Below, piece after piece: positions 8,007-20,719 of a DNA stretch of 25,217 nucleotides. This stretch comes from a virus. Positions within the stretch are counted from its first letter, which is position 1. Each line of letters begins with the position of its first letter. The position numbers were made by a program, and so were the translations under genes. Under the pieces are notes generated by a model. It did no database searches, had not been told where the DNA came from, and saw only the letters and a program-made list of their open reading frames with translations. The stretch lies in IMG/VR virus record IMGVR_UViG_3300027904_000001; one strand, given 5' to 3'.

Positions 8007-11000
8007 ATGGATGGGTTGGGTAACTTAATAACAAAAGGTGCAGCAGCAGTAGCAGGGGCTTTAGTTGCCATTGGTACTGCAAGTTTAAAAACAGGCATGG
8101 ATTTTGAACGAGAAATGAAAAATCTTCAGGCTATAATGGGAATCACTGGCGAAGCGGCAGAAATTGAAATGGCACAAATATCTGAAGGGATTCGTAAAGT
8201 TGCTGTAGATTCAGGAAGTAGTGTTATTGAAATAGCTGCTAATGCAAAAATGTTAGCGGAAGCAGGCGGCGATGTTAATTTAATGATGGCTCAATTAACT
8301 CATGGCGTTAATTTAGCGAATGCAACTCAAACAGATATGGCTACAACATTAGATTTTCTTGGTTCAACAATGAAGACATTTGGCATAGAAGCAGATGATA
8401 CACAATCTGTAGTTGACAGTTTTGCTCTTGTAACATCACTCGCCAATGTCGAATTATCACAATTAGGCGAATCTTATGTAAACGCGGGTGGATCTGCCGC
8501 TCAAGCTGGACTGAGTATAGATGATGTTAATGCAGTTTTAATTACGTTTGCGAATGCTGGTTTAAAAGGTGGTGCAGCTGGAACTGCTTTAAACTCTGTA
8601 TTAAAAAATCTTAGAACCCCAACTAATACAGCTGCAAAAGAATTAGATAGATTGGGTATTGCACTATATGAAGCTAATGGCGAGAGCCGAGACATGTTTG
8701 ATATTATGAGTGATTTAGAAGGTGCATTGTCAAACATGACAGATGAACAAAGAAGTCGTTCAGAGGCCATTATATTTGATTCAGTGGCTCAAAAAGGCTG
8801 GAATATGCTTATGGACGAAGGTATTGACGCAATAGTAGAGCTCAGCAGTGAATTAGCTGACTCTGTTAATGCTTTTGATGGCATGGGGCAAGCGGCCGGA
8901 ATGGCGGCTATCCAATCACAAAGTTTAAGCGGGATGCTTAATAGTTTAAAGGCTCAGTTTACTGAAATGGGATTATTAATCTATGATCAAATGGAAAAGC
9001 CATTAAAAACAGCTTTATCTGGAGTACTTGCATCCATGAATGAATTAAGAGAGAGCATGGTGTCTGGCGGATTAAGTGATGCTATTGCGAAAATTGGTGA
9101 AGGATTTGCATTATTAGTTGAAGTGCTTGTAAAATTGGCAGTCATGGCATTACCTACGATTCTTGGTTTATTAGGCGGATTCGCAGATATTCTTGGACGA
9201 GTTGCGCTTGCAATCGTAGGCGTAATAGAAGCAATTGGTGATAAATTTATGTCACCTGAAATGGCTGATAATATCCAGAAGATTAATGAAGCTTTTGATC
9301 GGTTAAAAGCAGCATTGCCTGAAGGCGATTTAATTCAATTAATAGCGGATGCATTCACGATATTATTGTCTGCTTTAATAGATATAATCGTTACTGTTAT
9401 TCCACCAATATTAGATTTTTTCACATGGATAGTAGATAATTTTAATACTATTGCTGGACTTGTAATCGCTGTAGCAACAGGTTTTGCGGCTTTTCAGATC
9501 GTGACAACTATAATCCCGCTAATAGCTGGATTAAGCGGGGCATTTGCAGGATTTCAGTTAATTCTAGCGGGCTGGTCATCAACGATTGCAATGGCGGGTG
9601 GCATATTGCCTGCTTTGGGTGGAGCAATAGCGGCCTTGGTTTCACCAATAGCACTTGTTATAGGAGCAATTGCAGCATTAGTTGCTGGGTTTATTTATTT
9701 TTATAATACAAATGAAGATTTTAGAAATAAAGTAAACGAGATTTGGGATAATATAAAAGAATTTATTGTAAATGCTGTTATTGTTATCAAAGATACTATA
9801 ATTAATATAGCTGATTCTATTAAAGATGCTTGGGTAAATATGATGTCATTTTTAGCAGATATTGGTGTTATTGATCTGATAATTGATACTTGGAATAATC
9901 TGAAAGAAAGTATAGCATCAATTATTAATTCGATAAAAGATATATTTACTGGGTTAATTTCACACATGTCTGATTCGGGGGCTTTTGAAGGATTATTAAA
10001 CGCATTTACGAGTATTTGGAATGCAATAAAAGATTTTTTTGCAACAGTCATTCCAGCGATATCAGAATTGTTTACAGAGCATTTTTCAGCGATTGCAGAA
10101 TTTATAACTTTAGTGTTTACTGGTATTAAAAATTTCTTAGGCAGTATATTCTCGGTCATATTAACGATTATAGGGGTTTCATTATTTGGAATATTTGCAT
10201 TCGTAACAGACATTTTTTCAGGCATTGCGGCTTTTCTTGAAACACATGGAGAAACTATTAAGACTATATTGATTGTTGCATGGGAATTAGCATGGGCTAC
10301 AATTCAACCTATTTTAAATTTTATCAGCGAAGGTATAAAATTAGTCGGTGATATGGTAAAAAATACTGTTGATATGATATCAGGCATACTTTCAGGCGAC
10401 TGGGCTAAGGCTTGGGAAGGTGCAAAGGGAATATTAGAAGCTACATTTAATGCAATTGATTTAATATTTCAAACGTTCAAACAAATTGCAATAAATACAT
10501 TTAATGTTTTCAAAGATGATTTAATTCAATTATGGGAGACTTTAAAACAAACCGTAACCAATAAAGCTACAGAATTAGTAACCGGAGTTGTAGAAAAGTT
10601 TAATTCTATAAAATCAGATGCGATACAAGCGTGGGAAAATTTAAAAACATCTGTAATAAATATAGTGAATGAATTAGTTTCTTCAATTACTGAGTTTTTT
10701 AACGATTTGCCTTATTTGATAGGATATGCTATTGGGGTTGCAGCAGGGTTAGTAGTGGCAGGAATTGTAATAATGGCCGAAGCATTTATCGATTTTATAA
10801 CTAATGATGTACCGCAATTTATTGATGGAATTGTAGAATGGTTTTCACAATTACCAGATAGAATAAATGAATGGTTAATTAATACTATTAATAATATAAC
10901 TGAATTTTTCGTCAATATTGTAACAATGGCAGAATCTGAAACTCAAAGAATTATAGAAAGTATAATTACTTGGTTTTCTCAATTGCCTGATAGAATATCA

Positions 11001-12446
11001 GAATGGCTGACAAATGCTGCAAATATAATAAATGAGTTTTTTTCTAATCTTAGTACTGTTGCGGCCTCAGAATCACAAAGAATTATTGATAGTATAATAG
11101 AATGGTTTTCACAGCTTCCAACTAGAATATCGGAATGTTTACAAAATACAGTACAGCGATTTATTGAATTTTTTGCTAATATGGGAGCGACAGCTTCGTC
11201 AGAATCTCAAAATATTATTACAAATATAATAAATGCTTTTACTAATTTACCTAGTTTGTTAGCCGATATGGGAAGAAATGCAATACAAGGATTGGTTAAT
11301 GGGATTCAAGAACGAGCGGGAGCCGCTATTGCTGCTGTAAGAGATATTGCGTCCGGAATAGCAGATGGCTTTAGAAGCGTTATGAATATGCGGTCTCCAT
11401 CAAGAGTAATGCAAGAAATCGGAGAGTTTGTAGGTGAAGGTCTTGAAATTGGTATTGAAAATAGCGCAAAAAATATAATCGATTCCACTGAAGATATTGG
11501 TAATAATATAATAAAAAATTTGCAAGACACATCGGAAGAAACAGAAATTATAGGAAAATCATTTTTAAGTAATTTCGGGGATGGATTAACAAATACATCT
11601 GATTCTATAAAATCTATAGTTAATGATATCAGCTCTGCATTAGGTAAAGAATTTATGGAAAATCTTATTGATAATATGTCTGATGCATTTGAAAATGTCA
11701 AAAATATAATAAATCAACAATGGGATAATGTTAAGAGTATATCTAAAAGTGCTATTGATGAATTAAATACAAATTTAAAAGACACATTGAAAAGCATACA
11801 AGACAATTGGCGTTCAATATGGGAATCAATTAATAAATCATTTACGGAAACTTCAAACAGTATTAAAAATATAGCTAATAATATTGTTAATACTGTTAAG
11901 GACGCATTTAATAATAAATTGCAATATTTACAAAGTATAGACCTATATTCAATTGGGGCAAATATGATGCAAGGGCTTATGAATGGTATCATGAGCATGG
12001 CAAACAATATAATGAATTCAGTCCAAAACATAGCAAATAATATTATAAATACAATGCAAAGCATTTTACAAATAAGATCTCCTTCAAGAGTTGCTATGAC
12101 AATAGGTAAAGATTTTTCGTTAGGAATAGCAATAGGATTAGAAAAAGAAGCAGGACAAATAGAAGATAGTATTAATAATATAACAGATAGAATGTCTGAC
12201 ATTGATTTTACAGATATGTTTGCTAAAGGTAAAATTAATATGCCAAACATGACATTGCCACCCGATAAATTTGCACAAATTATGGCAAGCGGAACACAAG
12301 CATCAACTAGTACATCTATAGATAGAGGAATAACAATTAATTTTAATAATTATGCTCCAATTAATTCAGAATTAGATATAGAAATGATAATGCAACGGAT
12401 AGGAAATAGAGTCCGTGATGAAGAACGATCAAGGGGGTTAAACTAA
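8007..12446 (+). CDS. tail tape measure protein
   Basis: 1479 aa. The N-terminus (GNLITKGAAAVAGALVAIGTASLKTGMDFEREMKNLQAIMG ...) matches the TP901-family tape-measure core. It has long Ala/Gly/Ile-rich hydrophobic segments, three ~44-aa tandem repeats, and two copies of an RSPSRV-x3-IG motif. The true start may lie upstream near the strong Shine-Dalgarno at 7935-7940 (see finding). Confidence 0.9.
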   Translation: MDGLGNLITKGAAAVAGALVAIGTASLKTGMDFEREMKNLQAIMGITGEAAEIEMAQISEGIRKVAVDSGSSVIEIAANAKMLAEAGGDVNLMMAQLTHGVNLANATQTDMATTLDFLGSTMKTFGIEADDTQSVVDSFALVTSLANVELSQLGESYVNAGGSAAQAGLSIDDVNAVLITFANAGLKGGAAGTALNSVLKNLRTPTNTAAKELDRLGIALYEANGESRDMFDIMSDLEGALSNMTDEQRSRSEAIIFDSVAQKGWNMLMDEGIDAIVELSSELADSVNAFDGMGQAAGMAAIQSQSLSGMLNSLKAQFTEMGLLIYDQMEKPLKTALSGVLASMNELRESMVSGGLSDAIAKIGEGFALLVEVLVKLAVMALPTILGLLGGFADILGRVALAIVGVIEAIGDKFMSPEMADNIQKINEAFDRLKAALPEGDLIQLIADAFTILLSALIDIIVTVIPPILDFFTWIVDNFNTIAGLVIAVATGFAAFQIVTTIIPLIAGLSGAFAGFQLILAGWSSTIAMAGGILPALGGAIAALVSPIALVIGAIAALVAGFIYFYNTNEDFRNKVNEIWDNIKEFIVNAVIVIKDTIINIADSIKDAWVNMMSFLADIGVIDLIIDTWNNLKESIASIINSIKDIFTGLISHMSDSGAFEGLLNAFTSIWNAIKDFFATVIPAISELFTEHFSAIAEFITLVFTGIKNFLGSIFSVILTIIGVSLFGIFAFVTDIFSGIAAFLETHGETIKTILIVAWELAWATIQPILNFISEGIKLVGDMVKNTVDMISGILSGDWAKAWEGAKGILEATFNAIDLIFQTFKQIAINTFNVFKDDLIQLWETLKQTVTNKATELVTGVVEKFNSIKSDAIQAWENLKTSVINIVNELVSSITEFFNDLPYLIGYAIGVAAGLVVAGIVIMAEAFIDFITNDVPQFIDGIVEWFSQLPDRINEWLINTINNITEFFVNIVTMAESETQRIIESIITWFSQLPDRISEWLTNAANIINEFFSNLSTVAASESQRIIDSIIEWFSQLPTRISECLQNTVQRFIEFFANMGATASSESQNIITNIINAFTNLPSLLADMGRNAIQGLVNGIQERAGAAIAAVRDIASGIADGFRSVMNMRSPSRVMQEIGEFVGEGLEIGIENSAKNIIDSTEDIGNNIIKNLQDTSEETEIIGKSFLSNFGDGLTNTSDSIKSIVNDISSALGKEFMENLIDNMSDAFENVKNIINQQWDNVKSISKSAIDELNTNLKDTLKSIQDNWRSIWESINKSFTETSNSIKNIANNIVNTVKDAFNNKLQYLQSIDLYSIGANMMQGLMNGIMSMANNIMNSVQNIANNIINTMQSILQIRSPSRVAMTIGKDFSLGIAIGLEKEAGQIEDSINNITDRMSDIDFTDMFAKGKINMPNMTLPPDKFAQIMASGTQASTSTSIDRGITINFNNYAPINSELDIEMIMQRIGNRVRDEERSRGLN
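10836..11231 (+). repeat. three degenerate 132-bp (44-aa) tandem repeats inside the tape measure gene
   Basis: The units begin gaatggttttcacaattaccagatagaata (10836), acttggttttctcaattgcctgatagaata (10968) and gaatggttttcacagcttccaactagaata (11100). They encode EWFSQLPDRI(N/S)EWL ... ESQRII(E/D)SII. Confidence 0.8.
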
Positions 12447-12995
12447 TTGACACCTAATAGTTTTAATATTAATACACCAAATTTAAATAGTTTTGATACA
12501 TGGGGTATAAAAGTTATTATATACGATGTATTTAGTCCTAATAAGCGTAGTAGGCGGAAACAAATTCCGTTTAGACATGGTTCATATGACATGGGGTATG
12601 AAAAATATTATGATGACAGGAATTTAAGAATAGAATGTCATTTAACAAAAAAATTATCAAAGGCTGACTTTAGAGAAATAATATATGTTTTGTCTCAAAA
12701 AAGCAGCCTTTATTTTTGGGATGAGCCAGATAAATTTTATAGATGTGAATTATTTGATTCAGTGGATATTAATGTTTTCCCTCAAGAAATTGGACGTGTT
12801 TTTATATTGCCTTTTGTTTGTGAACCTTTTGCATATGGAAGAATGGAGACAATAAAATTTAATGCTGGCAAAAATCCTATTGAATATATAGGAACCGTGC
12901 AAACACCTACTATATTGATAATCAAAAATAATAATGATTTCCCAATTAGTAATATATTAATTACCGCTATAGAACAAATACGGGCTATAGGTTAG
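12447..12995 (+). CDS. distal tail protein (Dit), Sipho_tail family-like, short form
   Basis: TTG start directly after the tape measure stop, with AAGGGGG RBS. The pattern FRHGSYDMGYEKYYDDRNLRIECHL ... LYFWDEPDKFYRCELFD ... FILPFVCEPFAYG matches the Sipho_tail Dit signature (ipgrdG ... c.l ... fsdepdk.Y.a ... f.c.Pf.y). It is only 182 aa, so the usual C-terminal domain is missing. Confidence 0.65.
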   Translation: MTPNSFNINTPNLNSFDTWGIKVIIYDVFSPNKRSRRKQIPFRHGSYDMGYEKYYDDRNLRIECHLTKKLSKADFREIIYVLSQKSSLYFWDEPDKFYRCELFDSVDINVFPQEIGRVFILPFVCEPFAYGRMETIKFNAGKNPIEYIGTVQTPTILIIKNNNDFPISNILITAIEQIRAIG

Positions 12996-13005
12996 GAGGT
13001 AAGGA

Positions 13006-13794
13006 ATGCAAGCAACACACCATTTTGAAGAAATAATTCTTAATACATTTAATAATGTAACAGCTATGGGATTAAGCCAAGGATTTGTAGCATTATTTGC
13101 TAGTAATCCTACTGATACAGGGATAGCAGGAATTGAAATAAATTATCCAGGGTATGCAAGAATTCCGGTAACTTGGACACCACCATATGAAGCGCAAAAT
13201 AATAGTATAGAGATTGTTAATGTCAATGATTTATTATGGGAAGCATCACAATTTGATGTCGGTGAAGCGCGATTTATTGGTATATCTAATTCACAACCTG
13301 TTGGCTCTGGAAATTTATTCTTATGGGCTCCTTTATCAATTCCATTAGTAATTAGAGCAGGCAACCAACCAAGTATACATGCCGGAGATATAATGTTTAA
13401 TCTTGTTGGTGATACAAGTCGTGATTTTAGAGTTAGGATTATGAATATTCTACGAGGTCAAAATCTGAATGGGTTTATCCCTCATTTATGTTTGTTTGAC
13501 GGAGATCCTGAAGCAGGTGGCAATGAACTATCAGGCCAAAATTATAGTAGACCATTAATAAACTTTTCACAACCAGCAGTTCAAGTTAGCGGGCAAACAC
13601 AAATTCAGAATACTAATTTAATCAGATTTCCTGCACCACAAGCTGTTTGGGGCAATTGGGCATGGGATGGAATTAGGGATGCCGCAATTGGAGGTAATTT
13701 AGTAACAAAAGCTATCAATGCTATTCCCGAATTGATACAACGGAATTATATTCCACAAGTGCCCCCTGGTGATTATAGAATTGGTGTTAACTAA
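13006..13794 (+). CDS. hypothetical tail/baseplate structural protein
   Basis: AGGAGG RBS. 262 aa, sitting between Dit and Tal. No confident family assignment. Confidence 0.6.
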   Translation: MQATHHFEEIILNTFNNVTAMGLSQGFVALFASNPTDTGIAGIEINYPGYARIPVTWTPPYEAQNNSIEIVNVNDLLWEASQFDVGEARFIGISNSQPVGSGNLFLWAPLSIPLVIRAGNQPSIHAGDIMFNLVGDTSRDFRVRIMNILRGQNLNGFIPHLCLFDGDPEAGGNELSGQNYSRPLINFSQPAVQVSGQTQIQNTNLIRFPAPQAVWGNWAWDGIRDAAIGGNLVTKAINAIPELIQRNYIPQVPPGDYRIGVN

Positions 13795-14504
13795 TGGATG
13801 GTAATTTAACATTAAATCGATTTAATTTAACTCGATATAGTATGCCTGAAACGCCAATTATTGAAAGGAACTTCAGCCGGACAATAAATATGAATTTTAT
13901 GGCTGTAGCTGGCGGGCGATTATATTTAGATTTTAGTCGCAATATGAATACAAACTTTACTGGCAGAACAGATATGCATGCAGTAATAATATTTAAGCGA
14001 AATTTAAATATTAGTTTCAATTCACAAGTTGAAATGAATATGTATATGAACGCTTTGCGCAATATTAATAATAAATTTTTTGGCAATGCATATGCAGGCA
14101 AAAAAATAAATTTTAGTAGAAATATAGAGTCTGAGTTAAAGTCTAATATACATGTTGGCAAAATTATTCCATTAATGCGCAACTCTCAAACTAGATTTGA
14201 AGCATGTGCGCATGCTGGGAAATATATCAATTTTGATAAAAATATACAAAGTATCTTTACTAGTTTTGTCGCAATGGGATTATCTCGTCATGCAGTTGCT
14301 ATTATTAATGTTGATTTAAATCCAGGTGAAGAAATACGGATAGATTCTGATATATTCACTGCTATGAAAGGCGATAAGAATATATTACATTTATATAATG
14401 GTGATTGGGTATATATCAATAGAAATACTGTTATATTACAAACAGAAGCTGGCTCAGGTGGAGATTTAGATATAGAATTAGTATATGTAACTAGATATTT
14501 ATGA
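13794..14504 (+). CDS. hypothetical structural protein with about five tandem ~22-aa repeats (FSRNxNxNF ... consensus)
   Basis: TAATG overlap with the upstream stop. Repeats read RNFSRTINMNFMAVAGG / FSRNMNTNFTGRTDMHA / FKRNLNISFNSQVEMN / KKINFSRNIESELKSN / KYINFDKNIQSIFTSF, followed by a non-repetitive C-terminal ~70 aa. Confidence 0.6.
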   Translation: MDGNLTLNRFNLTRYSMPETPIIERNFSRTINMNFMAVAGGRLYLDFSRNMNTNFTGRTDMHAVIIFKRNLNISFNSQVEMNMYMNALRNINNKFFGNAYAGKKINFSRNIESELKSNIHVGKIIPLMRNSQTRFEACAHAGKYINFDKNIQSIFTSFVAMGLSRHAVAIINVDLNPGEEIRIDSDIFTAMKGDKNILHLYNGDWVYINRNTVILQTEAGSGGDLDIELVYVTRYL

Positions 14505-14505
14505 G

Positions 14506-16671
14506 GTGATGCGATTGCAGGAGCCAAGATTAAGAGTTTACAATTTGCAACGGCAATTGACTGGGATTTTGCAAAATGCTTATAATATGAAAGAAGATTT
14601 AGTTATAAATGCAATAAGTCATTTTGAATTCTCATTGCCTTTAGATGATCACAAAAATAATTTGTGTAAACCATTCCATTATATTAGATATGATAACGGT
14701 CAATTATATCGAATAATGCCATCTGAACAAGAAATAGATGAGACAGGCGGCATACAATACAAATGTGAACATGTATTAGCTTTGCTTATTGGTAGAGCTT
14801 TAGCGGGAGAACATGTCGTTGGTAATATTGGGATGCCTACTGATGTAGTTATAAATTGGGTACTTGATAAGCAAAATAAAACATATGATTTATTTAGTAA
14901 ATCATGGAATATTGATCCAAGGAAATCAGTTGATTGGGTTCTGGGCGAATGTGATTTTTCAAGGCAATTTGAATATGGCTGGCAAAAAGAAAATTGTTTA
15001 AGAGCATTATTTAGTATAGCAAATCGATTTGTTGAAAATTACATTTGGACATTTGATACAAATGTATATCCTTATATAATAAATCTAAAAAAAATAGACC
15101 AAACTATAAACCCTGAAATGTATATTCGTGGTGGCAAAAATCAAATTAAATTAGTAAAGTCTCAAGACCCTACATCTATTGTTACAAGAATAATCCCTTA
15201 TGGTGTCGGAGAAGGTGATAATCAACTTACTGTTAATGAAGTTAATAATAATATTTCATATATTGAAAGTCCATCTCATATTATTGATGAATACGGGTTG
15301 ATTGAAACACAATGGATTGATAGGCGTTATGAAGACCCTCAATCATTATTGGAATCTGCCCAAGTAATGTTAGAAGCAATGCAAGAACCTTATGAAGAAT
15401 ATAAAGTAGATTTTACCATACTTGGCAAAAGTAATTTCGATATCCCTGAACTTGGCAAAATAGTAGAATTGATCGATTTAAATAAAAGAACATTTATTAC
15501 AGGCATAAAATATGATTACGAAGAAATATTAAATTCGCAATTAACGATTGCTAACAAATCACGTAATATAGCGGGCACTGTAGCTGAGTTAATGGATAGG
15601 CAACGTATAGAGATGGCATATGCACAGGGTAGTACTACAATATTTCAAGTAGATGCACGGGATAATGCGCAAGATAATTTCCCTTGTATTCTTAGAATAA
15701 TGTTTTTTAGCGATTTAATTATAATTAATAAAGTTGTTTTGGATATAGAAATAACTGCAGCCATAATACCGTTTACTTCAACCGGTGGTGGCGGTGGTCA
15801 AACTGTAACCCAATCAAATACAACATCCAGCGGAGCAAGTAGTACTACAACTACAAATAGTGGCGGTTCTTCCAGCCCTACTACAGCAAGTGGCGGTTCT
15901 TCCAGCCCTACTACAGCAAGTGGCGGGGGAACATCAACCAGTACAGAAAGTGGAGGCGGGCAGACCAGCGGGTCAAGTTCAATATCCACGACAGGGAGCA
16001 ACCCTACTCAAACTAGTAGTACAACTACCCAACAATCATTAACTAGCCATGATGCTGGACAAGTGCAACGCGGTAATGCAACAACTCGCAACTTGAATCC
16101 TGATAGTACTGGCGGTGCCAGTACCGGAGTTGCACATACGCATAGCTTGATGCAACATACTCATACAGTGGAAGTCACTACGTATCATACGCATAATGTA
16201 ACAATCCCTGGTCATAGTCACACAGTACCGAGTCATGAGCATGGGATGGCACATACTCATAATGTAGCCGCCCATAGCCATAGTTTTAGTGTACCAAGCC
16301 ATACGCATAGTGTAACAATAGCGGCTCATACACATACTGTAACTATACCTAGCCATACTCATGAAATGGCACATACTCATTCAATCGCACATACACATTC
16401 AATACCTGACCATACGCATTTATTAAGTCCGATTATATCGTATTCAGGTAATCCAACCTTTTTTAGATTGTTTGTAAATGGGATACACCGACAAACAGTT
16501 GATGGTCGAACATTACAAAGAGATATTGTCCCATTTTTAGTAGATGATAAAGGTTATTTGACTCGTGATATGTATCATAGAATAGAAGTGTATCCAAATA
16601 CAGCTGGCAATGTACGAATGTCTGTAAGCGTAAAAGCATTTAATCAAAGTCGCGGACCACATTCAGTTTAA
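14506..16671 (+). CDS. tail-associated lysin / tail tip protein (Tal) with a C-terminal Ser/Thr/Gly linker and His-x-His repeat region
   Basis: GTG at 14506 or ATG at 14509, directly after the upstream stop. The first ~400 aa sit in the Tal position after Dit and are the expected size of a prophage-tail/Tal N-domain. Residues ~425-510 are an S/T/G/P low-complexity linker. Residues ~545-640 contain about 13 H-x-H motifs (AHTHSL, HTHTV, HSHTV, HEHGM, HTHNV, HSHSF, HTHSV, HTHTV, HTHEM, HTHSI, HTHSI, HTHLL). Confidence 0.8.
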   Translation: MMRLQEPRLRVYNLQRQLTGILQNAYNMKEDLVINAISHFEFSLPLDDHKNNLCKPFHYIRYDNGQLYRIMPSEQEIDETGGIQYKCEHVLALLIGRALAGEHVVGNIGMPTDVVINWVLDKQNKTYDLFSKSWNIDPRKSVDWVLGECDFSRQFEYGWQKENCLRALFSIANRFVENYIWTFDTNVYPYIINLKKIDQTINPEMYIRGGKNQIKLVKSQDPTSIVTRIIPYGVGEGDNQLTVNEVNNNISYIESPSHIIDEYGLIETQWIDRRYEDPQSLLESAQVMLEAMQEPYEEYKVDFTILGKSNFDIPELGKIVELIDLNKRTFITGIKYDYEEILNSQLTIANKSRNIAGTVAELMDRQRIEMAYAQGSTTIFQVDARDNAQDNFPCILRIMFFSDLIIINKVVLDIEITAAIIPFTSTGGGGGQTVTQSNTTSSGASSTTTTNSGGSSSPTTASGGSSSPTTASGGGTSTSTESGGGQTSGSSSISTTGSNPTQTSSTTTQQSLTSHDAGQVQRGNATTRNLNPDSTGGASTGVAHTHSLMQHTHTVEVTTYHTHNVTIPGHSHTVPSHEHGMAHTHNVAAHSHSFSVPSHTHSVTIAAHTHTVTIPSHTHEMAHTHSIAHTHSIPDHTHLLSPIISYSGNPTFFRLFVNGIHRQTVDGRTLQRDIVPFLVDDKGYLTRDMYHRIEVYPNTAGNVRMSVSVKAFNQSRGPHSV
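15861..15926 (+). repeat. perfect 30-bp tandem duplication (2.2 copies) in the Tal linker
   Basis: tggcggttcttccagccctactacagcaag occurs at 15861-15890 and 15891-15920, followed by tggcgg. It encodes GGSSSPTTAS twice. Confidence 0.9.
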
Positions 16672-16683
16672 AGGAGTGCCAGA

Positions 16684-16902
16684 ATGGAGGTTTTTAAAAT
16701 AGATAATTTTAATTTTCGAGATGGATTCAATGTATATTTGGACGGACAATTATTGTCAGATGTTTATGCATTGCAAATTTCTGTGAATAGAGAACAAGAC
16801 AGTGAATTTGATAAAAACAAAATAACTGTTGCATATAGAATTAATGGGCATGAAGCCTTAATTTCAGCTAAGTTAGGAGCGATAAGTTTTGGCAGAACTT
16901 AA
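16684..16902 (+). CDS. small hypothetical protein (72 aa)
   Basis: AAGGAG RBS 8 nt before the ATG. It sits between Tal and the fibre genes. Confidence 0.5.
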   Translation: MEVFKIDNFNFRDGFNVYLDGQLLSDVYALQISVNREQDSEFDKNKITVAYRINGHEALISAKLGAISFGRT

Positions 16903-17356
16903 ACCAATGTATAGAGGCAGAGCCTATAGTAAAAAAACATTTCTTGCACAGCCTTTGAATGAAACAGCTACCACAATCTACGTCATAGATAGCTCTGTTT
17001 TGCCTCCAGCCCCGAACATGGCAACAATAGGTGATGAACGAACCGCAGAAACTATTCGTTATGGATTAATTATTGGTAATGAATTAAGGAATGTTACAAG
17101 AGCAGCCGAAGAAGAAAGCGTTGCACAAGCTTGGCAACCTGACACTCCTATTGCAAACTATATTACCGCTAAACTATTAAATAATATGGCCGATAACATT
17201 GATACTATAAATGAAGAAATAACCGAAGAAATAGGTTTAAAAAATCATATTATAGATCCTATGCCGCATAGATTCGTTGCTAATAATATTAATTATCAAT
17301 ATGGATTTTCAGTTGATAATACTGGTGGATTAATTTTAAAATATGAGGTGGTTTGA
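16889..17356 (+). CDS. hypothetical tail/baseplate protein
   Basis: TTG at 16889 or ATG at 16907. Its stop TGA overlaps the ATG of the next gene (ATGA). About 150-155 aa. No family recognised. Confidence 0.5.
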   Translation: MAELKPMYRGRAYSKKTFLAQPLNETATTIYVIDSSVLPPAPNMATIGDERTAETIRYGLIIGNELRNVTRAAEEESVAQAWQPDTPIANYITAKLLNNMADNIDTINEEITEEIGLKNHIIDPMPHRFVANNINYQYGFSVDNTGGLILKYEVV

Positions 17357-19638
17357 TGCCCGAAATTAGAGTAGCAAGACAAGATACGTCAGAAACAATC
17401 AAAACTATAGTTGAAACAATAGATGAAAAACAAGGCAATTACGCAGAAACGCCTCATGAAAATGGCAGAACCCAATTTTCATTGTTAAAATATGTCACAA
17501 CTACTTTATCATCTGTTAAAGATTTTTTTGATGCAAAAATATCTTCAAGGGCGTCAAGTATTGAGGCTCAGGCTATTAAAGATAAAATAGGCTCTCCGAA
17601 TCCTACACAAGGGAACATGACAAATGTTATGAATGGATTGAAATTAATTCATGATGACATGCCGGAAGCAAAAACTACTGTCTTAGAATGGGAATCGAGT
17701 CCAGTTGAAGTAGGATTATGGGATCCAATTCCAATCCAAACATTTGAACTTTATAGGAACAGACATATGACGGGGGCTATTGGTTGTTATTATAAAGGAT
17801 ATTTTTATATAGGCGGGAATAGCACAAAACAGAATTCATTTATGAGATATAAAGCAGAAACATTAAACGATAGATGGGAAATATTGCCTGATGCACCCGT
17901 CACATTGAATTTATATAATTTCTGTTTTTCTTATAATGATCATATTTATTGGTTAGGTTCATATCCAGCAACATTGAATCAATTTTGGCGGTATAATATA
18001 AACTTAAGAATATGGGAGCGAATGGCTGATACCCCTGTAGCATCTGCATATTATGGCCGTGGAGCATTCATAAATGGGATATTATATGTAGTAGGTATGA
18101 CTACAGTACCTAACTCTTTATATTCTTATAACCCAATTACTAATACATGGTCATCTCCGTTAGCTGCTCCTGGATTTAATGCGAGTAATGCAGCCGTCGC
18201 AGTATACAATAATGAACTATATGTATTTGGTACAACCGTGAATCAATCAGTAAAATATAATCCATCAACAAACATTTGGATACCATTAGCCAATCCTGTA
18301 ACAACAAGTATTGGCGGTTGGGGTTGCCTTATAGATAGTAAAATTTATATAATGGGGCCAACTACAACATTTAAATCTTATGATATACCTAATAATACAT
18401 GGGAAGCATTACCCGCTCTACCTATTACAATTGCTAGTCGCTTGGGACTTACTGACGGAACACTATTATATTATTTTGGGTTAGATGCTAATTATTTAGC
18501 TGTCGCATCCCAAAATCCAAAATTGACTACAACATGGTCATATTTATGGACAGGATACATGCCTACATTACCAAGTAATCCTTCGTTTGTACGTAAAGAC
18601 AATATCGTTTATATAGGCGGTAGTGCTACTAACCTAGGGCAATTGGCGACATTCGATTTAATTTCGCATGATATTGGATGGGAGATACCTGCAACAAGCC
18701 AATTAATTGCACCACCAGCTGATTTAAGAAATGCATGTGCTTTTGAATATAAAAATGAATTATATTTTATTGGAGCTACTGTTGCAACAGCCGGCACAGG
18801 CAATATATTCAGAAAATATAATTTGGTTACTAAGATATGGGCTAATTTGCCTAATGTACCCGGAAATACATTAAGAAGTCAAGCAATAGTAAATAATGAC
18901 GAAGTATATGTTTTACAAGGGAATACGGGCGGTACGGGATTTTGGAAATATAATTTTGCTAATAATGTATGGATTACGCTTCCGGCTACCGTTGCAATGC
19001 TTCATGTTGTTGCTGAATTGTATGATGACAAAATATATACAATTCAAGTTAACAATGTTAGAACATATGACTTTAGTGATGGGAATTGGCGATTAATAAC
19101 TGATCGTGCAATAGCCGCCCGGTTACAAACAACAGGCGTTGCAGGTACGGCCATAGTAGGTCTATTTGAAGGAGTAATTCCTATTGTTATTTTAACTCCT
19201 GGAAATATTCCTAGTAGTACTCTTGATGAAGATGATATTTATATAATTACGGATACTGCAAGTCAACCTTTGTTAAAATATTCTATTCCTGACAGGATAG
19301 GCAAACCAATATCTGTTCCACCGGTAGCACCTCAAAACGGAGGTCTTTTTGTTATGAACGATTGGTTGTATTTAGTATCACCTATCGGAGTAGCGGGAGC
19401 AGGATACCCAAATATTTATAGATGTAAATTGCGTGAAATGGCTTGGGAGCCAGACATTTTGACTCCAATAAAGCAAGGACAAGAAATATTTTATACAACT
19501 ACTAATAATAATTTATTTTTAACTTTTGACAATGTTAGAATAGCGTCAAATACAAAGTGGCAAGCGTATAATGATGGATTTATTGTGACTGATTGGTCTA
19601 AATCCGTTAAAGGCAAAATAAGAGCATTTTTAACCTAA
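17353..19638 (+). CDS. Kelch-like tandem beta-propeller tail fibre / receptor-binding protein candidate; paralog of 381..2603
   Basis: The likely start is the ATG at 17356 with GAGGTGG RBS. Kelch-like repeats include YFYIGGN, LYVVGMT, LYVFGTT, IYIMGP, YNPITNTW, YNPSTNIW, YDIPNNTW. It sits in the canonical position of receptor-binding proteins, after Tal and before lysis. It shares blocks with 381..2603, for example LYSY(D/N)P..N.WS.PLA.PGF ... NELYVFG ... GWGCLI.SKIY.MG ... YDIP.N.W ... LPITI ... GLTDG ... NDWLY..SP.G. Confidence 0.8.
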   Translation: MMPEIRVARQDTSETIKTIVETIDEKQGNYAETPHENGRTQFSLLKYVTTTLSSVKDFFDAKISSRASSIEAQAIKDKIGSPNPTQGNMTNVMNGLKLIHDDMPEAKTTVLEWESSPVEVGLWDPIPIQTFELYRNRHMTGAIGCYYKGYFYIGGNSTKQNSFMRYKAETLNDRWEILPDAPVTLNLYNFCFSYNDHIYWLGSYPATLNQFWRYNINLRIWERMADTPVASAYYGRGAFINGILYVVGMTTVPNSLYSYNPITNTWSSPLAAPGFNASNAAVAVYNNELYVFGTTVNQSVKYNPSTNIWIPLANPVTTSIGGWGCLIDSKIYIMGPTTTFKSYDIPNNTWEALPALPITIASRLGLTDGTLLYYFGLDANYLAVASQNPKLTTTWSYLWTGYMPTLPSNPSFVRKDNIVYIGGSATNLGQLATFDLISHDIGWEIPATSQLIAPPADLRNACAFEYKNELYFIGATVATAGTGNIFRKYNLVTKIWANLPNVPGNTLRSQAIVNNDEVYVLQGNTGGTGFWKYNFANNVWITLPATVAMLHVVAELYDDKIYTIQVNNVRTYDFSDGNWRLITDRAIAARLQTTGVAGTAIVGLFEGVIPIVILTPGNIPSSTLDEDDIYIITDTASQPLLKYSIPDRIGKPISVPPVAPQNGGLFVMNDWLYLVSPIGVAGAGYPNIYRCKLREMAWEPDILTPIKQGQEIFYTTTNNNLFLTFDNVRIASNTKWQAYNDGFIVTDWSKSVKGKIRAFLT

Positions 19639-20164: not shown

Positions 20165-20719
20165 ATGTCCAAATTAATAGATATTACTGGAGAAAAGTTT
20201 CATAAGCTTACAGTAATAAAAAGGGTTGAAAACAAAAATAACAAAGCTTATTGGTTATGTAAATGTGATTGCGACAAAGACAAAGAAGTAATTGTATCTG
20301 GTAACAATTTGAAAACAGGTTCAGTTAAATCTTGTGGATGTCTTATTTCAGAAATGAAGTTAATTAAAAAAGAAAAAATAAATTGTACAAAAATAGTAGG
20401 TAATAAATATAATAAATTGTTAATATTGCAAATATTGGAATCAGGAAAAAATAAAGACAGATATTGTAAGTGTTTATGTGAATGCGGTAATATAAAAAAT
20501 ATATTATTATCAAGCATACTTAATAATCATACAAAAAGTTGTGGGTGTTTGCCTAAAGGTGGCAATATTATACATGGTAAATCTTATACTCGATTATATA
20601 GTATATGGCGTGATATGAAAGGCAGATGTTATAATAAAAATAATGTTAATTATATAAATTATGGATACCGAAATATATCTATTTCAAATGAATGGTTAAA
20701 TTCATTTGAATTGTTTTAG
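20165..20719 (+). CDS. Cys-repeat (zinc-ribbon-like) protein of a phage-associated family, apparently C-terminally truncated
   Basis: AGGAGG RBS. There are two copies of the CxCxC ... SCGCL motif (YWLCKCDCDKDKEV ... KSCGCL and RYCKCLCECGNIK ... KSCGCLPKG). These are followed by HGKSYTRLYSIWRDMKGRCYNKNNVNYINYGYRNISISNEW, which resembles the widespread phage motif HGxSxTRLYxIWxxMxxRCxN ... YGGRGIxVCxEW. That family normally continues about 60 aa further, but this ORF stops. Confidence 0.65.
   Translation: MSKLIDITGEKFHKLTVIKRVENKNNKAYWLCKCDCDKDKEVIVSGNNLKTGSVKSCGCLISEMKLIKKEKINCTKIVGNKYNKLLILQILESGKNKDRYCKCLCECGNIKNILLSSILNNHTKSCGCLPKGGNIIHGKSYTRLYSIWRDMKGRCYNKNNVNYINYGYRNISISNEWLNSFELF

Follow-up and report, generated by a model that had tools for sequence, protein, structure and literature searches.

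A run of thirteen HxH motifs on a Tal-type siphophage tail-tip protein: a candidate metal-binding fibre shaft

Why should a protein of a siphophage tail tip carry a long run of histidine-x-histidine (HxH) motifs? The question is raised by IMG/VR virus record IMGVR_UViG_3300027904_000001, a DNA stretch of 25,217 nucleotides (nt), here called the window, in which a plus-strand gene codes for a 721-residue protein of the Tal type. The original prediction, made from the letters of this DNA, described about 13 tandem HxH motifs near the C-terminus of the protein and proposed that they form a trimeric needle loaded with iron or zinc. We regard it as probable that the protein is a trimeric tail-tip hub with a central fibre, the shaft of which would be cross-linked by up to 13 axial His6-metal sites.

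The HxH array and the other parts of the protein

The gene and its parts were delimited as follows (ORF, open reading frame):
14506..16671, plus strand: gene of the Tal-type tail-tip protein, 721 residues, GTG start, consisting of hub, S/T/G linker, HxH shaft and C-terminal knob (ORF list, phrog_4311, PF06605, TIGR01665)
14506..15780, plus strand: N-terminal hub domain, residues 1-425, gp27/Tal fold (AlphaFold2 and Foldseek)
15781..16134, plus strand: S/T/G-rich low-complexity linker, approximately residues 425-543, 119 residues (composition, monomer model)
16135..16419, plus strand: array of 13 HxH motifs, residues 544-638, proposed metal-binding shaft (regular expression count, shuffle control, PDB profile matches)
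16292..16403, plus strand: DNA periodicity within the array, 27-bp units (16292-16362) and 18-bp units (16354-16403) (Tandem Repeats Finder)
16420..16668, plus strand: conserved C-terminal globular domain, residues 639-721, 83 residues, predicted small beta-rich knob (AlphaFold2)

Counting by regular expression gives exactly 13 HxH motifs, starting at residues 544, 551, 561, 570, 577, 583, 590, 599, 608, 617, 623, 629 and 636. The span of 16131-16424 given for them previously was off by a few bases only, and the residues quoted then match the ORF. Successive motifs are 7, 10, 9, 7, 6, 7, 9, 9, 9, 6, 6 and 7 residues apart. The units do recur, as had been claimed, but a spacing of 6-10 makes their pitch semi-regular and not strict. 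The array contains 26 of the 36 histidines of the protein, so that histidine accounts for 27% of this 95-residue stretch. When the protein was shuffled 20,000 times, HxH occurred 1.7 times on average and 9 times at maximum, as compared with 13 in the real sequence. No other ORF of at least 150 residues, in any of the six frames of the window, contains two or more HxH. As read off the sequence, the residue at position +4 of the unit is hydrophobic in 13 of the 13 units.

The DNA of the array is itself repetitive. Tandem Repeats Finder detected a period of 27 bp (2.6 copies, 73% match) and a period of 18 bp (2.8 copies, 87% match), pointing to growth of the array through unit duplication. An antisense ORF overlapping this region (16039-16380, minus strand, 113 residues, rich in Met, Cys, Arg and Tyr) was rejected as a gene, being the reverse complement of the CAT/CAC histidine-codon repeats.

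The array is preceded by the linker, in which Ser (30), Thr (29) and Gly (23) make up 69% of the 119 residues. In the AlphaFold2 monomer its predicted local distance difference test score (pLDDT) is 30-40. A low-complexity S/T/G/P linker of about 90 residues had been described at this place; this length corresponds to the most repetitive part of the whole. Within the linker, a perfect 30-bp tandem duplication (15859-15926, 2.3 copies) encodes SGGSSSPTTA twice, which looks like a sign of recent slippage or expansion. The array is followed by 83 residues, in accordance with the globular tail of about 80 residues noted before. This C-terminal domain is predicted to be compact and beta-rich, with pLDDT of about 78-94 across residues 641-710 and of 88-97 in the core. 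It contains no HxH by motif count, and neither profile nor fold searches of the PDB found a sequence or fold match for it.

The nature of the protein is revealed by its N-terminal part. PF06605 (Prophage_tail) matches residues 142-361 with 74 bits against a cut-off of 31.3 (2e-20, Pfam), and TIGR01665 scores 94.6 bits against a threshold of 26.75 (6e-27, NCBIfam). The name that NCBIfam gives to this N-terminal domain is "phage tail spike/anti-receptor". In the AlphaFold2 model of the hub (residues 5-425), pLDDT is mostly 80-96. Foldseek search of the PDB with the hub retrieved the Tal of Brochothrix phage NF5 as top match (9m7n_A, E 5.2e-19), along with the monocin tip (9j1k, 6.5e-17), Listeria prophage gp18 (3gs9, 3.7e-16, target TM-score (TMt) 0.64), the 80alpha baseplate (6v8i, 7.7e-15, TMt 0.65), Mu gp44 (1wru, 5e-11) and T4 gp27. 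When the full-protein profile was compared with PDB sequences, no solved relative of the hub or of the C-terminal domain was found by sequence, and the hub is recognised through the fold search only. Scans of Pfam, NCBIfam and PHROGs revealed no lysin domain in the protein, that is no peptidase, lysozyme or other enzymatic family, and no carbohydrate-binding module was detected in it. Many Tals have no lysin domain, so a lysin-free protein restricts the literal name "Tal" only. By family and fold, the protein is the Tal-type hub of a siphophage-like tail module.

The closest database sequence is a 448-residue fragment, 100% identical, from a metagenome-assembled genome (MAG) of a "Firmicutes bacterium". 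Look-up of the exact protein sequence found no record, and the window gave no megablast match in the phage collection.

Distribution of the array and anatomy of its repeats

Is the array peculiar to this one protein? The protein matches phrog_4311 over its full length (E 1.7e-129, residues 9-718 against profile positions 2-648 of 651, PHROGs). The label of this family, "minor head protein", is at odds with the Tal fold and, judging from the modelled structure, is a mislabel. Homologues with the full architecture and 31-35% identity are encoded by isolated phages of Enterococcus (phiEf11, EFC-1, IME197, FC1), Bacillus (vB_BhaS-171), Caldibacillus (CBP1) and Halomonas (YPHTV-1), with 8 HxH in phiEf11 and 6 in vB_BhaS-171. 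Among the best 120 database homologues, one is a truncated fragment and all 119 full-length proteins carry 4-19 HxH, with a mode of 8. The last HxH is located 81-84 residues ahead of the C-terminus in 117 of these 119. The search for similar arrays in other phage proteins, which the original prediction had suggested as a check, is thus positive.

With the C-terminal 212 residues alone, a word-indexed search returned only 29 short fragments; the full-length query and an exhaustive hidden Markov model (HMM) search were needed. The latter, carried out with the C-terminal profile, retrieved 1,125 cluster representatives (50% identity) at E<=1e-3, 525 of which at E<=1e-10, and HxH counts reach 26 and 41 in the wider relatives found in this way. 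In species-representative genomes, 27 prophage loci were found with the family profile. According to record titles, most of them belong to Clostridia and other Bacillota (Oscillospiraceae, Lawsonibacter, Christensenella, Tissierellia, Peptococcaceae), a few being untyped "uncultured bacterium" MAGs and one being binned as Porphyromonadaceae. As far as sequence comparison goes, the HxH array is a hallmark of a large catalogued family and not specific to the window. The window copy with its 13 motifs is an ordinary member of this family, above average in HxH, somewhat longer than the average copy and unexceptional.

Three full-architecture homologues are assigned to Gram-negative organisms, namely ON854455.1 (Halomonas phage YPHTV-1), L010 (the Porphyromonadaceae bin) and P0144 (a Prevotellaceae MAG). 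These assignments may reflect true spread beyond Firmicutes, or mis-binning and mis-assignment. Two other relatives, P0169 and P0243, with 22-26 HxH, end in another C-terminal domain of about 100 residues (…YGIFR…SVRNIIQA[IV]AY[LV]), so the HxH shaft is joined to more than one knob type. PF26674, present in precomputed annotations of some homologues, is, judging by list order, probably another N-terminal family and not the HxH region.

Repeat statistics were derived from approximately 1,400 units of 195 family proteins. The dominant unit has nine residues and the consensus H-[TS]-H-[STN]-[VF]-[ST]-[IV]-P-[SA]; the second unit has six residues, H-x-H-[GN]-[MI]-x. In both family alignments, it is the His columns of the repeat region that are invariant or nearly so. 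Position +4 holds a hydrophobic residue in 98-100% of the units with 6, 8 or 9 residues, as does position +6 in 95% of the 9-residue units. Positions 1, 3 and 5 are hydrophobic in at most 12% of the 6- to 9-residue units. These intervening positions are polar, and the strand face opposite to His, Val, Phe, Ile and Met consists of Ser, Thr, Asn and Asp. The two histidines and the hydrophobic residues are therefore in phase. This is the pattern that two His and aliphatic residues gathered on one face of an amphipathic beta-strand would show, and it is what a buried axial His/metal core requires. Proline is present in 70% of the 9-residue units, 36% of the 7-residue units and 40% of the 11-residue units, but in only 9% of the 6- and 8-residue units. 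Odd-length units would need such a Pro/Gly bulge to regain strand phase.

Kinship to metal-binding fibres and the proposed shaft

Further, we examined how the array is related to fibres of known structure. When the C-terminal profile of the family was compared with 177,635 PDB sequences, two matches only were obtained, 8kec_A (E 4e-5) and 2xgf_A (E 2e-4). The former is the long tail fibre gp34 of Anabaena myophage A-1(L), the gp34 arm of which was called gp37-like by its authors (PMC10966104), and the latter is the tip of T4 gp37. Both align on the HxH repeats only. The full-length family profile retrieved the same two entries, and in a single-sequence search with the 721-residue protein 2XGF was among the two best (E 0.14). 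T4 gp37 and A-1(L) gp34 have in common with the family HxH runs spaced by 9, the unit H-x-H-x-V-x-I-[G/P]-x and S/T/G-rich sequence ahead of the runs. Taken alone, the HxH segment resembles fibres of Gram-negative phages, such as Aeromonas phiA050 (52% identity over 78 residues) and E. coli PTXU04 gp17. The original link to gp37 is borne out to this extent, and a specific relationship between the HxH stretch and the iron-binding needle repeats of T4 gp37 is supported by these sequence matches.

In gp37, P2 gpV, the phi92 spike, PA0616 and R1/R2 pyocin fibres, iron sits in an octahedral His6 cage built by three HxH motifs, and zinc is bound at an HxH site in T4 gp12 (PMC6116203). In gp37 there is one Fe per HxH triplet, situated on the trimer axis (PMC6116203; PMC11705849). 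The needle of gp37 consists of six antiparallel strands, and its HxH flank an inserted head domain on either side (PMC7291167). An up-and-down topology of this kind was not found: in our protein the HxH form a single run (residues 544-638), and the same is true across the family. T4 gp37 has 7 Fe sites and serves a Gram-negative myophage as side fibre, with HxH on ascending and descending strands, whereas the 721-residue protein is a siphophage hub protein with 13 motifs in one run, followed by an unrelated 83-residue C-terminal domain.

Comparison with other systems also reveals partial likeness. P2 gpV and the phi92 gp138 apex are axial trimeric tail-tip elements with a His6-Fe cage built from HxH, as is proposed here. 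They differ in having one motif at the extreme C-terminal apex, an OB-fold (oligonucleotide/oligosaccharide-binding fold) with a beta-helix spike, and contractile tails. Neither Pfam nor Foldseek gave an OB-fold or spike match for our protein, and its 13 motifs, unlike the single apex motif, are followed by a globular domain. R1/R2 pyocin fibres, like the fibre proposed here, have a thin trimeric shaft with buried HxH-Fe, followed by a C-terminal, lectin-like beta-sandwich of about 90 residues; their authors proposed that the metal serves folding registration and tuned stiffness (PMC6116203). In contrast to our protein, they contain a single HxH site and are side fibres of a contractile system. 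NF5 gp17, 80alpha Tal and Listeria gp18 have the hub fold and HMM family of residues 1-425, and the gene of our protein likewise lies in a module with tape measure protein (TMP) and Dit. Unlike these Tals, it has the HxH shaft as a C-terminal extension and two extra ORFs between Dit and the gene.

For a Gram-positive siphophage, an octahedral His6-Fe site on the threefold axis was shown by EXAFS in the receptor-binding protein Gp45 of phi11 (PMC4901313). In contrast to the 721-residue protein, this is one site, formed by His42-X7-His50, in the helical bundle of a peripheral receptor-binding protein, and not an HxH array on the Tal. Phage Abitsa was considered as a literature precedent and rejected, the motif there being the HxHxDH of a hydrolase. 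Literature searches for HxH or His-X-His together with Tal, siphophage or Gram-positive found no published description of the HxH array of this family or of one on a Gram-positive siphophage Tal. Motif class and chemistry are thus known and the family is catalogued but mis-annotated, while an array on a Gram-positive siphophage Tal is undescribed in the literature found. As a trait the array is common throughout phrog_4311, isolated phages included, and a His6-Fe site in one Gram-positive siphophage receptor-binding protein had been reported already.

We propose the following arrangement. The 721-residue protein would be the lysin-free, Tal-type trimeric tail-tip hub in a temperate siphophage or a prophage with a Bacillota host, and the hub trimer would close the tail tube. 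The C-terminal thirds of the three chains would join into a central tail fibre that consists of a flexible S/T/G-rich stalk, a shaft of about 95 residues with 13 HxH units, and the conserved 83-residue knob. Each chain of the shaft may be an amphipathic strand that turns His(i), His(i+2) and the hydrophobic residues i+4 and i+6 toward the threefold axis. Three symmetry-related HxH would form an octahedral His6 cage round a metal ion, probably Fe(II) by precedent. The core would then alternate metal and hydrophobic layers, with up to 13 ions per trimer, and Pro or Gly in odd-length units would reset the strand phase. The metal sites may register the three chains in folding, and may cross-link and stiffen a very thin shaft. 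Because shaft and knob are kept in phages of different hosts whereas the following gene is variable, the two together would more probably serve as a general central needle or docking element than as a host-specific receptor binder.

Tail module and competing explanations

The neighbouring tail genes are the following:
8007..12446, plus strand: TMP, 1,479 residues (phrog_1272, 6.8e-147)
12447..12995, plus strand: Dit, short, ring domain only (Sipho_tail RIFT; PF05709 1.3e-6, phrog_33 1.7e-16)
13006..14504, plus strand: two conserved tail-tip ORFs of 262 and 236 residues (p262 and p236) between Dit and HxH-Tal (PF23140; syntenic in related loci)
16889..17356, plus strand: ORF of 155 residues, homologous to the N-terminal anchor of a variable fibre (phmmer)
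17353..19638, plus strand: Kelch-repeat beta-propeller protein, 761 residues (Kelch_6 8e-17, other Pfam Kelch families)

The order in the window is thus TMP, Dit, p262, p236 and HxH-Tal, and the same order is kept in 22 of the 27 genome loci. The ORF of p262 (13006-13794) has two matches to PF23140 (podophage GP4 fibre I protein gp80), and p236 is of unknown family. Between the connector genes and TMP no ORF exceeds 202 residues; none is of sheath size, and the tail has therefore no sheath. Together with TMP and Dit upstream, PF06605, TIGR01665 and the hub fold, this supports the assignment to a siphophage Tal made from the sequence at the outset. Endolysin and holin are encoded downstream of the tail genes.

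In 25 of the 27 loci, the gene after HxH-Tal opens with a domain homologous to ORF 16889-17356 (phmmer). In those loci this anchor domain is followed by a variable fibre body of 600-850 residues, Ala/Gln/Thr-rich in several of the six examined. In the window, the anchor is a separate ORF of 155 residues, which lies in another frame and shares 4 nt with the start of the Kelch ORF; the separation may be genuine, with two genes, or may result from a frameshift or an error of sequencing. Since the 761-residue Kelch protein occupies the place of the variable fibre body in relatives, it is likely to be the variable receptor-binding protein of this element. Docking of the anchor on the conserved knob is speculative.

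A second large Kelch beta-propeller of 740 residues is encoded at 381-2603, upstream of the head-morphogenesis genes; both Kelch proteins match phrog_12615, phrog_16120 and several Pfam Kelch families. Between the tail-fibre genes and the endolysin, an ORF for an HNH endonuclease (20165-20719, phrog_374, 2e-54) has been inserted.

Several points weigh against a metal-stacked central fibre. The PDB profile matches have modest E-values, which come from a repeat of biased composition. Because every HxH lies ahead of the globular domain, the gp37 geometry is not directly transferable; spacings of 6-10 residues demand local irregularities in the shaft. In the AlphaFold2 monomer of the full protein, residues 427-640 are unstructured (pLDDT 30-45), and a monomer of the last 125 residues likewise gives no usable model of the HxH region. 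The HxH-Fe cage of P2 gpV is dispensable for folding and for laboratory infection (bioRxiv 10.1101/2023.02.25.529910); the functional weight of such sites is thus uncertain and an essential role is not to be assumed. Finally, three loci from Clostridia MAG prophages encode two tandem HxH-Tal paralogues (L020, 2631-6258; L022, 2646-6258; L023, 1477-5076), each with 5-6 HxH and the conserved C-terminal domain. These paralogues, as well as the two ORFs after Dit, complicate the picture of a single central trimer.

Could the shaft be structured and trimeric but devoid of stoichiometric metal? Its histidines might be hydrogen-bonded into ladders, or might serve as a pH or redox switch that loosens the fibre at an acidified or energised cell surface and leads to tail opening. 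The in-phase pattern proves a shared His face only and not bound metal, the pKa of histidine suits sensing, and the apex of P2 gpV tolerates a hydrophobic core in place of the His cage (bioRxiv 10.1101/2023.02.25.529910). We nevertheless consider such a shaft unlikely, because bound metal is reported at solved phage HxH triplets (PMC6116203), six buried imidazoles per layer would be energetically awkward without a cation, and the strict His-x-His spacing fits an octahedral cage rather than a generic His-rich sensor. It is very unlikely that the histidines are solvent-exposed and that the segment, having no buried core, is an adhesin or metal-scavenging surface which binds free metal or anionic wall polymers (teichoic acids, capsule). 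High His content, lack of structure in the monomer prediction and a distal position at the tail tip suited to first wall contact would agree with this. On the other hand, His is in phase with Val, Phe, Ile and Met while the other face is Ser, Thr, Asn and Asp, which puts His with the core residues; the repeats are akin in sequence to the buried sites of gp37, and their conservation over very different hosts (Enterococcus, Bacillus, Clostridia MAGs) is not that of a host-specific adhesin.

It is also conceivable, though improbable, that the shaft binds metal and the protein serves as an accessory fibre of the tail tip, or as an alternative one, whose N-terminal domain is Tal-like, the tube being closed by p262 and p236 or by another protein. 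The two conserved ORFs between Dit and the gene, the tandem paralogues of L020, L022 and L023, and the "spike/anti-receptor" name of the N-terminal domain speak for such a role, as does the vB_BhaS-171 homologue, which lies several genes past Dit. The homologue of phiEf11, however, directly follows Dit, the window showed no second ORF resembling a hub, and residues 1-425 match whole hub proteins (3gs9, 6v8i, 3cdd) with TMt of 0.64-0.71 in Foldseek. We therefore retain the hub with a metal-cross-linked central fibre as the probable explanation.

Significance of the family

In Gram-negative phages and in tailocins, iron sites of the HxH kind are established for both fibres and spikes (PMC6116203). 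In Gram-positive siphophages, the literature found describes a single, non-HxH iron site, that of phi11. The prediction made here is clear and testable, and would not greatly surprise a specialist; it is a good structural lead and not a one-off oddity.

A bolder extension, which we consider quite unlikely, is that the siphophages and prophages of one major Firmicute lineage (525 or more clusters at 50% identity, among them Enterococcus and Bacillus phages and Clostridia-class prophages known mainly from MAGs) possess a central needle through which 4-41 metal ions per trimer run as a colinear chain, 13 in the present case as compared with 7 in T4 gp37. Collapse of the needle and opening of the tail could then be triggered when the metal is lost, reduced or chelated at the cell surface. 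Such phages would also represent a previously uncounted pool of protein-bound iron in the gut virome.

If the hub with a metal-cross-linked fibre is true, phrog_4311 and its relatives would be a large, so far undescribed family of tail-tip proteins with a metal-stacked central fibre, carried by Enterococcus phages of therapeutic interest (phiEf11 group) and by numerous prophages of the class Clostridia that are known chiefly from MAGs. Hundreds of genes would receive a correct annotation, and shaft length and metal load would follow a simple sequence rule, based on the number of HxH and on whether the units have 6 or 9 residues. The cultivable phages phiEf11 and vB_BhaS-171 would provide systems for the role of metal arrays in fibre folding, stiffness and wall penetration.

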